A stretch of 49,845 nucleotides of DNA from Candidatus Omnitrophota bacterium (GCA_041649115.1 JBAZNT010000011.1:1-49845), one strand, 5' to 3'; shown: positions 1-44,528, counted from the first letter of the stretch. Notes: generated from the letters alone by a model not told the origin. Translations and numbers: made by a program.

Positions 1-993
1 GAGGGGGCCCTGGGCGTAATCGCCGCAGTAGGGCTGGGCGAAGAGGACGGGGACATAACGCGCGATTATGAGGAGCGCTCGCGCCGGTCCTTTACCAATA
101 TTATCCGGCTTACCCGGCAGGCGACCAGCAAGCCCTTTGGCGTCAATATCATGTGCGCCCTTACCAACTATGACGACCTGGTGGATGCTGCGCAGGAGGA
201 ATCGGTAGACGTTATTATTTCCGGAGCCGGCCTGCCATTAAAGCTGCCTTCCCTGGTCAATAGCAGGGCTACTAAGTTGGTGCCGATTGTTTCTTCGGCG
301 CGCGCAGCTCATATTATCTGTAGCGTTTGGAAGAGGAGATACAATCGCCTCCCGGATGCCATGGTGGTGGAAGGGCCTTTGGCCGGAGGGCACCTTGGTT
401 ATAGCCGCCAGGAGCTTCTGGACCCGGAGCATATTTACCTGGACAATATCTTAAGAGAGGTTTTGTCGGTGGCGCGCGGGTTTGATAAGAACATGCCGGT
501 AATTGCCGCCGGGGGCATTTTTGACGGCGAGGATATTGCGCGGGTTATCCGTTTGGGCGCCAGCGCGGTGCAGATGGGCACGCGTTTTGTCTGCACCCAC
601 GAATGCGACGTCTCGCTCAAATACAAAGAAGCCTACATAGAGGCCAGGCAAGAGGATATCGTGATTATCCAGAGCCCGGTGGGGATGCCCGGCAGGGTTA
701 TCAGCAATGATTTTGTCAAAAAGATATTAGAGGGGGAGCGCGTTGATTTTGGATGCGCCTACAAGTGTTTATCCACCTGCAACCCCGAAAAAGTAAAATA
801 TTGCATTGCCAAGGCCCTGATCAATGCCTCCAGAGGAGATCTGGACAGAGGGTTTGCAATGTGCGGAAGCAACGCCTACCGCATTAAAAAAATCATTTCA
901 GTCAAACGGTTAATCGCCGAGTTGGTAGAAGGCGCGCGCGCTGCCTTAGAAAAATTAGCCGTAACCCAAGAGGGACAAACATCAAAAAAGTAA
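1..993 (+). CDS. Nitronate monooxygenase / FabK-like FMN-dependent oxidoreductase, 5'-truncated by the window edge
   Basis: Frame is open from base 1 (EGALGVIAAVG...KPFGVNIM). Motifs IISGAGLP, VVEGPLAGGHLG, PVIAAGGI, VQMGTRF and SPVGMPGR are typical of the NMO/FabK family. Confidence 0.85.
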   Translation, partial: EGALGVIAAVGLGEEDGDITRDYEERSRRSFTNIIRLTRQATSKPFGVNIMCALTNYDDLVDAAQEESVDVIISGAGLPLKLPSLVNSRATKLVPIVSSARAAHIICSVWKRRYNRLPDAMVVEGPLAGGHLGYSRQELLDPEHIYLDNILREVLSVARGFDKNMPVIAAGGIFDGEDIARVIRLGASAVQMGTRFVCTHECDVSLKYKEAYIEARQEDIVIIQSPVGMPGRVISNDFVKKILEGERVDFGCAYKCLSTCNPEKVKYCIAKALINASRGDLDRGFAMCGSNAYRIKKIISVKRLIAELVEGARAALEKLAVTQEGQTSKK

Positions 994-1130
994 AGACTTC
1001 AGGAAAAGGCAGGAAGTGTAAGTTTCCGCATTGCGGCCATACCTTAAGCATCTATAATCATGAGGCCTATTGCCATATTCATATGGGGGTTACGGATAAA
1101 ACGAGAAAGTCTAAGAAAGGAAAGCCCTGA
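981..1130 (+). CDS. Hidden 49-codon basic Zn-finger-like microprotein (C-x4-C-x12-C-x2-H) with an ATC codon at the start position
   Basis: Not in the ORF track. Reads (I/M)KKVKTSGKGRKCKFPHCGHTLSIYNHEAYCHIHMGVTDKTRKSKKGKP*. GAGGG lies 6 nt before ATC at 981, and the TGA at 1128-1130 overlaps the helicase ATG (TGATG). Confidence 0.7.
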   Translation: MKKVKTSGKGRKCKFPHCGHTLSIYNHEAYCHIHMGVTDKTRKSKKGKP

Positions 1131-2383
1131 TGGTGCCTCGAACAGGCGGAACGGACAATATCAATAGTGCGTCGAAGCAGCCGGAGTTCGGCTTTTACGG
1201 GCTGGGCATTGCCCCCAGGATCCTTGATACCCTGGCGCGCATAAAGTTTAGAACCCCCACGCCCATTCAGTTCAAGGCTATCCCCTTAGCAATCCAAGGC
1301 AAGGATATTATCGGGATCGCCCAGACCGGGACCGGCAAGACCCACGCCTTTGCCATCCCGATGGTGCAGCGGCTGGCACAGAAGAAGGGGGTGGGGTTGG
1401 TCCTGGCGCCCACCCGGGAGTTAGCGCTGCAGATTAATGAGTCTTTCCAGGAAATAGTCCGTCCCTTTGGAATGAAGACCGCCTGTCTCATCGGCGGCGC
1501 CCCGATGCAGTATCAGGTGCAGGCATTGCGTAAGAATCCCCAGGTGGTGATTGCTACCCCGGGCAGGCTGCTTGACCATATGGGGCAGTGGAATTTCTTG
1601 CCGGACGATGTATCAGTGCTGGTGCTGGATGAGGCAGACCGCATGCTGGACATGGGATTCGCTCCGCAGATAGATAAGATTTTGCGTTTCCTTCCCAGAG
1701 AGAGGCAGACCATGCTATTTTCGGCTACCATCCCCAAAGAGATTATGGAGATGGCAGCCAGGCAGATGAAACTTCCGGTATCGGTAGAAATTGCTCCCTC
1801 CGGCACTACCGCGGAGCGCGTCACGCAGGAACTGTTCATTGTAAAAAAAGAAGCCAAGCGTCAGCTTCTCAGCAAGTTGCTGGCGCAGTACCGGGGCGCA
1901 GTGCTTTTGTTTTCCCGCACGAAATATAACGCCAGAAAGATCACGCGCTGCATCCGCGATATGGGTTACAGCGCTGCGGAGATACACTCCGACCGCTCCC
2001 TGAGCCAGCGCCGGGAGGCGCTGGAGGGTTTTAAATCAGGGAAATATAAGGTGCTGGTGGCTACCGATATTGCCTCGCGGGGAATCGATGTCGCCGGTAT
2101 CGAACTGGTGGTTAATTATGACCTCCCTGAAGACGCCCAGAACTATGTGCACCGTATCGGGCGTACGGCAAGGGCGGGATCCTGCGGGCATGCAATTTCC
2201 TTCGCCACGCCTGAGCAGCGCGGAGATGTCAGGGATATCGAAAGGATTATCAGGTCTACGCTACCCTTAGCAAAACACCCCGAGATTGCCTCGGAAAGAT
2301 TTATTGATTCCGGGCGTGAATCCCCTCGAGTGAATCCAAGGCACCATCAAGGGCAAGAGCGGCATAGGTTTCGCCGCTATTGA
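1130..2383 (+). CDS. DEAD-box RNA helicase (RhlE-like)
   Basis: Q motif (TPTPIQ), AQTGTGKT, PTRELA, TPGR, DEAD, SAT and HRIGRTAR are all present, with a short basic C-tail. Confidence 0.95.
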   Translation: MVPRTGGTDNINSASKQPEFGFYGLGIAPRILDTLARIKFRTPTPIQFKAIPLAIQGKDIIGIAQTGTGKTHAFAIPMVQRLAQKKGVGLVLAPTRELALQINESFQEIVRPFGMKTACLIGGAPMQYQVQALRKNPQVVIATPGRLLDHMGQWNFLPDDVSVLVLDEADRMLDMGFAPQIDKILRFLPRERQTMLFSATIPKEIMEMAARQMKLPVSVEIAPSGTTAERVTQELFIVKKEAKRQLLSKLLAQYRGAVLLFSRTKYNARKITRCIRDMGYSAAEIHSDRSLSQRREALEGFKSGKYKVLVATDIASRGIDVAGIELVVNYDLPEDAQNYVHRIGRTARAGSCGHAISFATPEQRGDVRDIERIIRSTLPLAKHPEIASERFIDSGRESPRVNPRHHQGQERHRFRRY

Positions 2384-22275: not shown

Positions 22276-22974
22276 TTAGATAAGCCCCGCATCCGCAAAA
22301 CTGAAATAATCGTCATTACCGATAATCACGTGATCGAGCGCTTGGAGGCAGAGCATCTCTCCTGCCTTTATGAGCTCGCGGGTAAATTCCTTGTCTTCCG
22401 GGCTGGGCTGGGGGTTTCCTGAAGGGTGGTTGTGAACGCATATCAGGGAAGGGGCAAAACCCTGGAGCGCCTTGTGGTAAATTTCCCGTAAAATCGGCTT
22501 TACCTGGTTCACCGTGCCTTCCGTAACCTCGGCAATATCAATAATCCGCGCCCCGGAGTCCAGCAGTATTATCTTAAATACCTCTTTTTTCAGGTCGCGC
22601 ATCCTCGGCATCATGATTCCCGCCACATCTGCCGAAGATTCTATCCTGGGTCTGGAAGCCATCATTTCTTTTTCTTTAATCCGCCTGCCGATTTCTATCG
22701 CTGCTTTTATCTGGATAATCTTTGCATTGCCAAGGCCCAGACCGCGGAATTCATCCCAGGAAGCCGGGTCGGTATGGGAGAGGTTGCGGAATGTTTTGAA
22801 TTTATGGAGTATTTTTCTCGCCAGGTCTACGGCGCTAAGGCCTTTTGCGCCGCAGCGGATAATTATTGCCAGGAGTTCCGAATCAGTAAGGGTATGTTCA
22901 CCCTGCCGCAGGAGTTTTTCCCGCGGCCGGTCTTCCTTGGGCCAGTTTGTTATGCTGGTATGCAACTTTTTAAT
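22276..22974 (-). CDS. radC: RadC (HhH plus JAB domain), probable ATT start
   Basis: WP.EDRPREKLL, LTDSELLAII, KEVF...LD, HNHPSG and DHVIIG motifs. In-frame ATT at 22974 lies 5 nt after GGAGG, whereas the track TTG at 22965 is 14 nt away. Confidence 0.9.
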   Translation of the reverse strand: MKKLHTSITNWPKEDRPREKLLRQGEHTLTDSELLAIIIRCGAKGLSAVDLARKILHKFKTFRNLSHTDPASWDEFRGLGLGNAKIIQIKAAIEIGRRIKEKEMMASRPRIESSADVAGIMMPRMRDLKKEVFKIILLDSGARIIDIAEVTEGTVNQVKPILREIYHKALQGFAPSLICVHNHPSGNPQPSPEDKEFTRELIKAGEMLCLQALDHVIIGNDDYFSFADAGLI

Positions 22975-23125
22975 TTTTGCCTCCCAGGTAATAGACGATA
23001 TTGCCGGTAGTTTCTAACAGGGAAAGAGCAGACACCTTCCCGAACAGCCGGGAGAGCGTTACTGCTTCAGAGGCAAGATACTGTCCCGAACGGGGAGGAA
23101 AACGTCTTGTGCTTTGAAAAAAGGT

Positions 23126-43364: not shown

Positions 43365-43864
43365 CGAACCTGAACCTTATGCTGTTGGTATTGATGGTAG
43401 CGGCGGCAGTCTGGGCGGTAATGGCCAGGAGCCTTCTTAAGGCCGCAATCGGCCTGGCGATAGCCAGTATTATAATTACTATTTTTATGTTTGAATTCAA
43501 CTCGCCCCTGGCAGCGGTCTTTGAGCTTTCGGTCTGTAGCGGTCTCATTACGGTAATCTTCCTGAGCACCATCGGGCTTACCAGGCCATTGAGCCATAAG
43601 GAGCTGTTGGCGTTATCCAGGGACCGCGGAAGGCGCTACGGTTTTATGCCGTTATTGGTTATTGCCTGCGGCGCAATACTGGCATTTGTTTTCCTCAAGA
43701 TGCCGCTGGATCTGGAGGTGGCTAAAAATACCATTAGCGTAGGCGCGCGGGAGGTCCTTTGGAATTTCAGGCACCTGGATCTATTCGGACAGATTATGAT
43801 ATTGCTGGCAGGAGGATTCGGAGCAGTATTGCTATTCAGGGAGACCAACACAGATGAGTGGTAG
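43361..43864 (+). CDS. NuoJ/MrpA-C-terminal-like small membrane subunit
   Basis: A.A.FELSV..GL.TV and R..DLFGQ...L.G motifs; operon position. Confidence 0.7.
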   Translation: MTNLNLMLLVLMVAAAVWAVMARSLLKAAIGLAIASIIITIFMFEFNSPLAAVFELSVCSGLITVIFLSTIGLTRPLSHKELLALSRDRGRRYGFMPLLVIACGAILAFVFLKMPLDLEVAKNTISVGAREVLWNFRHLDLFGQIMILLAGGFGAVLLFRETNTDEW

Positions 43865-44174
43865 TATCGCGGAATTCTTCTGGGTTTTTACGGTTTTCAT
43901 CGCGATGCTCGCGTTTGCTGGATTCTACTGCATACTGGTAACCCGCAACCTTATCCGGGCGTTGATCGGCCTGGAGATCCTTAATAAGGCCGTAACCCTG
44001 CTTTTTATCGTAGTGGGCTATATTACCGGCCGCCAGGCATTGGTGCAGGCGCTGGTGATAACGACGATTGTTATAGAGGTGGTAATCATTGTAGTGGCGG
44101 GAGGGGTTATTATGAGCGTATACCGCAACGATGAATCGCTGGACGCAAGGAACCTCAGGAATCTGAAAGGTTAA
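43854..44174 (+). CDS. NuoK/MrpC-like membrane subunit
   Basis: G.Y......NLIRALIGLEI and QALVIT.IVI motifs; three TMs. Confidence 0.85.
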   Translation: MSGSIAEFFWVFTVFIAMLAFAGFYCILVTRNLIRALIGLEILNKAVTLLFIVVGYITGRQALVQALVITTIVIEVVIIVVAGGVIMSVYRNDESLDARNLRNLKG

Positions 44175-44177
44175 AAC

Positions 44178-44528
44178 ATGCCGCATCCGTTATTTTATCC
44201 TCCGGTAGCCTTTGTCATCATTATGGCTTTTATAATGTGTATCTCGGCCTTGCTTTCACGCCTGGCATTCAGGCCGGGGAAACAGCCGCAGGAGGGTTCC
44301 TCCAAGGCCTATGCCTGCGGCGAGGATATCCCGGAGCACCGGGTGCAGATTGACTACGGCCAGTTTTTCAGCTTTGCTTTTTTCTTTACCATCCTGCATG
44401 TGCTTACGCTTGTTATCGCAACGGTGCCTATCGAGACCACGGATTCGTTTTTTATTTCAGTAATCTATATTGCCGGGGCAATCACCGGATTGTTTGTTCT
44501 CTTCAGGAAGGACAGACTATGGGGTTAA
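44178..44528 (+). CDS. NuoA-like membrane subunit
   Basis: K.YACGE in the first loop and three TMs. Confidence 0.8.
   Translation: MPHPLFYPPVAFVIIMAFIMCISALLSRLAFRPGKQPQEGSSKAYACGEDIPEHRVQIDYGQFFSFAFFFTILHVLTLVIATVPIETTDSFFISVIYIAGAITGLFVLFRKDRLWG

Follow-up and report, generated by a model that had tools for sequence, protein, structure and literature searches.

Introduction

Near-cognate start codons are found in bacterial genes such as pcnB of Escherichia coli, which starts at AUU, and to our knowledge it is very rare for a bacterial gene other than infC to have a conserved AUU or AUC start. IF3 autoregulation targets the AUU/AUC start of infC, and in one system AUA, AUU and AUC amount to about 5-7.5% of AUG (PMC5499595). 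Here we describe a gene for a zinc-finger microprotein, called the finger below, which is predicted to start at AUC and which lies between an oxidoreductase gene and a DEAD-box RNA helicase gene in a stretch of 49,845 nucleotides from a Candidatus Omnitrophota bacterium (GCA_041649115.1 JBAZNT010000011.1:1-49845). This whole stretch, referred to as the window, corresponds to C11, one of the 22 contigs in a genome of 1.32 Mb.

Besides infC, three described systems are close to this locus in one respect each. In E. coli, the small open reading frame (ORF) yrbN, of 26 codons and with no known function, overlaps the cold-shock helicase gene deaD by 8 nt, and the finger gene resembles it in being a small ORF directly 5' of, and overlapping, a DEAD-box helicase gene in one transcript. 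Unlike the finger, YrbN has one Cys, no finger and an ATG start, and homology between the two was rejected (hhalign probability 0.8%, no sequence relation). The second comparison is with treble-clef-like fingers of the A20 type (Cx2-4Cx11Cx2C) and the TAZ type (Cx4Cx8Hx3C), whose spacing is similar to the C-x4-C-x12-C-x2-H of the finger; as in these folds, the model of the finger has a knuckle hairpin and then a helix giving the last two ligands. The best structural neighbour is A20 ZF7 and the best sequence neighbours are zf-TAZ and the CBP peptide 1liq, all of them below significance, and unlike these proteins the finger family has an invariant LS-YN-H motif specific to itself. Finally, Air1/Air2 are zinc-knuckle cofactors of the RNA helicase Mtr4 in the yeast TRAMP complex. 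The likeness here is one of idea, namely a small basic zinc-binding protein that binds RNA on behalf of a helicase core or acts as a bridge to it; unlike the finger, Air1/Air2 are eukaryotic, carry CCHC knuckles and show no homology to it, and for the finger a physical interaction with the helicase is only proposed. A literature search on the LSIYN motif and on zinc-finger/DEAD-box operons found no paper describing the finger or such an operon. The finger protein family is undescribed; a gene with a near-cognate start, a coupled operon and a small zinc finger are each of a known kind.

Results

Conservation of the finger gene

Comparative evidence indicates that positions 981-1130 of the window are a real, conserved gene missed by annotation, which belongs to an unnamed family widespread in one class of Omnitrophota. 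It also indicates that the AUC at 981-983 is the start of this gene, AUC/AUU being the commonest start of the family and no lesion, and that finger and DEAD-box helicase form a conserved pair, in which the finger is the first of the two cistrons and its stop codon overlaps the helicase start. The features concerned are as follows.

1-993, plus strand: 3' part of an NMO/FabK-like flavin mononucleotide (FMN) oxidoreductase gene, the 5' part being cut off by the contig start (Pfam NMO, E 3.4e-50; FabK model below cutoff)
970-974, plus strand: Shine-Dalgarno-like GAGGG, 6 nt 5' of the ATC
981-983, plus strand: predicted near-cognate start ATC (AUC), from the aligned-codon counts in 105 loci; the coding signature begins here
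981-1130, plus strand: gene of the 49-aa zinc-finger microprotein, including the TGA stop; product (M/I)KKVKTSGKGRKCKFPHCGHTLSIYNHEAYCHIHMGVTDKTRKSKKGKP
984-990, plus strand: heptamer A_AAA_AAG, in phase with the NMO frame and judged a by-product of conserved Lys-Lys codons
1017-1082, plus strand: zinc-finger core, with the putative ligands and the invariant LS-YN motif between them, from invariant alignment columns and an AlphaFold2 model
1017-1019, 1032-1034, 1071-1073 and 1080-1082, plus strand: codons of Cys13, Cys18, Cys31 and His34, the putative ligands
1128-1132, plus strand: UGAUG, finger stop and helicase start overlapping by one base, the A of the TGA being the A of the helicase ATG (1130-1132)
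1130-2383, plus strand: DEAD-box RNA helicase of 417 aa, with a RhlE/CshA-like core and a short basic tail (DEAD and Helicase_C domains)

The finger ORF is read in frame 3 as ATC (981) AAA AAA GTA ... CCC TGA (1128-1130), which gives 49 codons and the peptide IKKVKTSGKGRKCKFPHCGHTLSIYNHEAYCHIHMGVTDKTRKSKKGKP, with Lys/Arg-rich ends. An earlier reading of the locus, made from the sequence alone (the sequence-only reading), had described 49 codons, this Cys/His spacing, Lys/Arg-rich ends, a GAGGG at 6 nt and a TGA/ATG overlap, and the sequence agrees with it in all of these. The frame is open from position 888 and contains no ATG, GTG or TTG ahead of open-frame residue 65. As for the helicase, its domains match Pfam DEAD at E 1.1e-50 and Helicase_C at E 6.5e-29, and its best NCBIfam models are CshA, RhlE and DbpA, each under the equivalog cutoff. 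It is the one DEAD-box helicase gene found in the window genome, where the finger is also single-copy. A search of the interval between the NMO gene and the finger gene revealed no promoter-like site, and therefore NMO, finger gene and helicase are probably co-transcribed in the window.

Of 61 related genomes searched in six frames, 39 contain the peptide, with E-values from 1e-11 to 1e-29, and these are spread over both the family and the order. It also occurs in 33 of the 151 genomes of an even sample of the phylum, the listed matching genomes being all from the window's class. Scanning one genome for each prokaryote species with a sequence pattern yielded 283 confirmed finger stretches. Their record titles are nearly always Candidatus Omnitrophota, with a few Planctomycetales, Sedimentisphaerales or Margulisiibacteriota, and at least two of these few records are in genomes placed in the window's family. 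The public labels of locus L046 (CAYOMI010000130.1, 'uncultured Planctomycetales') and locus L068 (DATJPP010000070.1, 'Candidatus Margulisiibacteriota') are probably wrong, both being of the window's own Omnitrophota family. At the protein level, 1.84 billion representative proteins were searched exhaustively with a profile, which returned 465 clusters at E<=1e-3, the 150 best matches being all short (<=209 aa), and a word-indexed search of 5.8 billion proteins returned only 8 annotated 'hypothetical' homologues, against the 283 genomic copies. Gene callers miss the family; the gene is short and most of its members lack ATG, GTG and TTG.

In an alignment of 40 orthologues, R11, C13, C18, L22, S23, Y25, N26, C31 and H34 are invariant, and K3, S7, K9, G10, I24, H27, E28, Y30 and H32 are at least 90% conserved. 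Over codons 2-36 of 105 unique loci, the set to which the locus counts below refer, the entropy at the three codon positions is 0.40/0.39/1.14 bits, while in the 12 codons upstream of the finger start it is flat (1.82/1.83/1.81 bits) and an in-frame stop occurs in 55 of 103 loci. This difference indicates that protein-level selection starts exactly at the codon aligned with 981-983. Together with the recurrence of the peptide in related genomes, it places the finger ORF far beyond chance. The sequence-only reading had proposed a genuine small Cys3His zinc-finger protein, and had named missing homologues or an unconserved Cys/His pattern as what would speak against it; the presence of the peptide in 39 of the 61 relatives and the invariance of C13, C18, C31 and H34 in the 40 aligned orthologues bear the proposal out.

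The same data bear on a different explanation, according to which the ORF is a regulatory leader, an upstream open reading frame (uORF) that sets the translation of the helicase while the peptide itself is functionless. A weak start codon together with a stop/start overlap is typical of regulatory uORFs, and the layout is like that of yrbN and deaD. Nevertheless, nine invariant residues that include all four metal ligands, and a third-position variation three times that of the first and second positions, point to selection on the protein; moreover, finger copies persist away from any helicase, and the finger is also a domain of larger proteins. We consider a functionless leader peptide very unlikely. 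No Rfam family matched in 17 loci, and with a fold z-score of -0.19 no structured leader was seen.

Start codon and Shine-Dalgarno sequence

The first codon of the finger gene is ATC in 37 loci, ATT in 28, ATG in 39 and GTG in 1, and nothing else was found; 5 of the 39 ATG starts sit one or two codons further upstream. An independent assembly from the same genus has ATC too, with a peptide 96% identical. On the helicase tree ATT and ATC interchange many times, with 29 changes over the four codon states and never a change to a non-start codon. Between the preceding stop and the ATC or ATT (together ATY), 44 of the 65 ATY loci hold no in-frame ATG, GTG or TTG. The ATY starts either adjoin an overlapping upstream gene, as in the window, or follow spacers of 120-225 nt that hold no upstream gene, and for this reason a dependence of the ATY start on an overlapping upstream cistron is ruled out.

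With regard to the ATC of the window, the sequence-only reading had left three options: initiation at ATC, a recent disabling of the gene by G983C, or a base-calling error. A single G-to-C change does turn ATG into ATC, and on that ground the codon could stem from faulty sequencing of an ATG, or from a mutation that recently inactivated the gene and left it dead in the window. The occurrence of ATC or ATT at the aligned codon in 65 of 105 orthologues (ATC in 36 loci other than the window's, ATT in 28), including the independent same-genus assembly, upholds the first option and refutes the other two, and the ORF of the window is intact with every invariant residue present; a dead gene or a miscalled base is scarcely credible here. 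The same reading had proposed that one base change explained both a lost start of the finger ORF and a lost stop of the NMO gene. This was not borne out, since the NMO gene, read in frame 1, ends normally at its own TAA (991-993) after overlapping the first four codons of the finger gene in a different frame, so that there is no missing stop for a base change to explain.

A purine block resembling a Shine-Dalgarno (SD) sequence occurs at the same place in all orthologues. ATY starts have a strong and often extended SD, such as GGAGGTG, 5-7 nt upstream, and the median energy of the duplex with the anti-SD is -10.7 kcal/mol for ATY against -6.05 kcal/mol for ATG/GTG starts (Mann-Whitney p = 1e-9, a contrast inflated by relatedness), the background median being -4.2 kcal/mol for the first ATGs of long ORFs in the window genome. 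In this the finger gene is like infC, where an AUH start (AUA, AUC or AUU) is conserved over many genera behind a strong, often extended SD (GGAGGTG). The infC gene of the window genome itself, located outside the window (genome G000, contig C9, approximately 43762-44300, minus strand), has a matching SD, a 6-nt spacer and the ATA AAA AAG layout: it reads AAGGAGGTG-gttgcg-ATA AAA AAG TTC, with GGAGGTG as SD. It has no plausible ATG, its lone in-frame GTG lies inside the SD, and it probably starts at AUA. Unlike infC, the finger is unrelated to IF3, so that any effect of this factor would be regulation by IF3 and not autoregulation, and about 38% of finger orthologues have switched to ATG/GTG, mostly with weak SDs.

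A general use of ATY starts in the window genome was rejected. Before the long ORFs of this genome, an SD combined with ATT, ATC or ATA is not enriched over an SD combined with other codons, and the trait is therefore gene-specific. A separate observation concerns a RadC/JAB-like ORF (HNHPSG) at 22276-23013 of the window, minus strand, which has no ATG ahead of its conserved N-terminal ERPREKLL motif; its candidate starts are an ATT (22974-22972), 5 nt past a GGGAGG, and a TTG three codons later, and it may be another case of a near-cognate start.

The region of the start codon has also been read in terms of frameshifting, the finger being a C-terminal extension of the NMO protein made by a dnaX-type programmed -1 frameshift at A_AAA_AAG (984-990). 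The heptamer is in the NMO phase, with the SD-like GAGGG 9 nt upstream and the NMO stop immediately after, and the same phase is seen in loci L008, L032 and L038. However, most loci have no NMO gene upstream and show stops or long spacers ahead of the start, and in locus L023 an in-frame TAG closes the NMO frame 9 nt ahead of the ATC. No downstream stimulatory structure was detected (z = -0.19), the 150 best protein matches are all within 209 aa with no genomic NMO-finger fusion seen, and the heptamer is accounted for by the conserved Lys-Lys codons. Given the unconserved phase relation and the failure to find a stimulatory structure or fusion proteins, the frameshift from NMO was rejected as highly improbable.

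Association with the DEAD-box helicase

An orthologous helicase, 65-80% identical, lies directly downstream of the finger in 84 of the 105 loci. Start and stop codons overlap in 54 of these 84 (ATGA in 39, TAATG/TGATG in 15), and 21 more have a gap of 2-15 nt. The SDs at the helicase starts are at background level (median -3.9 versus -4.2 kcal/mol), which is compatible with ribosome delivery by termination-reinitiation and leaves room for, without proving, a dependence of helicase translation on that of the finger. Seventeen relatives lack the finger; the helicase orthologue is missing from 12 of them as well and present in the other 5. ATY starts are found in 60 of 83 helicase-linked copies versus 5 of 22 unlinked ones (Fisher p = 4e-5, phylogeny not corrected). 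From this comparative evidence, coupling of finger and helicase appears well supported.

The sequence-only reading had placed the finger in a chain running from NMO to the helicase. The part concerning the helicase holds for the family, while the NMO gene is the upstream neighbour in a minority of loci, in a handful of genera only, and is a local arrangement and no family feature. That reading had also looked to related genomes for orthologues starting with ATG next to DEAD-box helicases; the adjoining helicase was recovered in the 84 loci, and the ATG in just 39 of 105, against 65 with ATC or ATT.

Other contexts of the finger were also recorded. In loci L022, L028, L039, L041 and L049, finger copies without a helicase begin 1-4 nt past the stop of a B12-binding radical-SAM gene of about 430 aa, and in L006 such a gene is downstream of the finger instead; the copies in the radical-SAM context mostly start with ATG. 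In L105 the finger (716-865) is just upstream of a UvrD/PcrA-type (SF1) helicase (949-2892), which takes the place of the DEAD-box helicase. Genome G021 has two finger paralogues about 2 kb apart (L008 and L030; contig C6, 42619-44889), the first with an ATT start overlapping the end of an NMO gene and followed by an Arg/Ser/Pro-rich ORF of 146-165 aa with no Pfam match, and the second with an ATG start ahead of a polysaccharide deacetylase. In L010 (1638-2628) the match to the adjoining helicase is split into two segments (residues 5-199 and 270-407) whose coordinates overlap, suggesting a frameshift or deletion in that helicase gene.

Protein kind and fold

The finger matches no Pfam, NCBIfam or PHROGs family. 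Sub-threshold matches to zf-TAZ occur in 26 of 40 members (best E 0.002; best score 15.4 bits versus a gathering cutoff of 25) and to zf-A20 in 2 of 40 at E 0.03, and the best match to CxC6, at E 5.6e-4, is also below cutoff. A sequence search of the PDB gave nothing significant, the best hit being 1liq, a 27-residue peptide of CBP TAZ1 (E 0.046). An AlphaFold2 model built on the 40-sequence alignment has a mean predicted local distance difference test (pLDDT) score of 66, with 70-84 for residues 11-40; in it a short hairpin bears C13 and C18 and a helix begins at C31/H34, in a treble-clef-like layout. Foldseek returned nothing significant with this model, its best neighbours being A20 ZF7 chains at E about 3 and template-modelling (TM) scores of 0.45-0.65. 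Homology to bL36, prompted by the MKVKxS...C N-terminus and the x12 spacing, has an hhalign probability of 0.4% and was rejected; the genome carries a canonical rpmJ at another place.

In the distant relatives P0091, P0097, P0132, P0110, P0138 and P0153, the C-x4-C...LS-YN...C-x2-H finger is a domain of proteins of 110-210 aa, where it adjoins helix-turn-helix (HTH), winged HTH (wHTH) or DnaD_N modules, or EndoVII/HNH/Lar-like zinc modules. The finger thus travels with nucleic-acid-binding domains, and these proteins suggest a wider finger domain that is undescribed and occurs in part in mobile elements. Zinc would be bound through C13, C18, C31 and H34, and nucleic acid through the basic tails.

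These fusions to HTH, wHTH, DnaD_N-like domains or EndoVII/HNH-like zinc modules are also what would be expected if the finger were a small DNA-binding transcription regulator, for instance an autoregulator of its own operon, and no RNA-directed partner of the helicase, with the neighbouring helicase reflecting co-regulation only. About 20% of finger copies are not beside a helicase and five genomes have the helicase without the finger, which would be consistent with such a role. On the other hand, the tight stop/start overlap in 54 of 84 linked loci and the joint absence of finger and helicase in 12 of 17 genomes suggest that the two function as a stoichiometric pair, and no palindromic operator was found, although no search was aimed at one. 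We regard the regulator role as unlikely, and at the same time as a real alternative.

Discussion

Taking the evidence together, we consider it probable that the finger is a real AUC-started gene, the coupled first cistron of the helicase pair, with a start discriminated by IF3 and a product that serves the helicase as a nucleic-acid-binding accessory. Several observations weigh against this interpretation or parts of it. The SD of the window itself (GAGGG, -6.3 kcal/mol) is among the weaker ones, and an independent-pairs test of the difference in SD strength between ATY and ATG starts was underpowered, with only 2 well-supported pairs, and shows nothing. Similarly, changes between ATY and canonical starts on the helicase tree number at least 12, just 2 of which are forced by well-supported branches. 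The link with the helicase is not obligatory, since the five relatives mentioned above keep the helicase without the finger, and 21 of 105 finger copies are found elsewhere, often after B12-binding radical-SAM genes. As to the protein, the structure model is of moderate confidence only (pLDDT 66) with no significant structural match, and the HTH/wHTH fusions of distant relatives fit DNA binding as well as RNA binding.

The mechanism that we propose for the coupled finger gene is based on analogy with infC. Initiation at AUY would be weak and discriminated by IF3, as at infC, so that synthesis of the finger may be held at a low set point dependent on IF3 and on the status of the ribosomes, and termination-reinitiation would then pass the same low set point to the only DEAD-box helicase of the cell. 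Initiator tRNA presumably inserts formylmethionine (fMet) at the AUC, and the product would begin MKKVK. In the window, the finger gene may also receive ribosomes that reinitiate after terminating at the NMO stop, 10 nt downstream of the AUC. The zinc knuckle and helix, placed between Lys/Arg-rich tails, most likely bind nucleic acid and act as an accessory or targeting subunit of this minimal helicase.

A more specific hypothesis can be drawn from the same analogy, namely that the AUC/AUU finger cistron is an IF3-sensing gate, which relays to the sole DEAD-box helicase through the stop/start overlap, with the finger as the RNA-binding subunit of that helicase. We put this forward tentatively and consider it doubtful. 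If true, translation of the finger cistron would, like that of infC, rise when there is little IF3 for the ribosomes present, and this signal would reach the helicase. An IF3 translational regulon would then have a second conserved member, and in a streamlined uncultured lineage the fidelity of initiation would be tied to the remodelling of RNA or the assembly of ribosomes.

The finding adds to the known protein families one that is well supported and that is overlooked by standard gene callers. Across dozens of genera its near-cognate start is kept, with switches between AUU and AUC, and it gives way to AUG mainly where the SD is weak; the family is in this sense a natural series for studying the trade-off between start codon and SD strength. 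For the organism, the results suggest that these reduced genomes express their only DEAD-box helicase by way of a zinc-finger microprotein, with which the helicase possibly also works.

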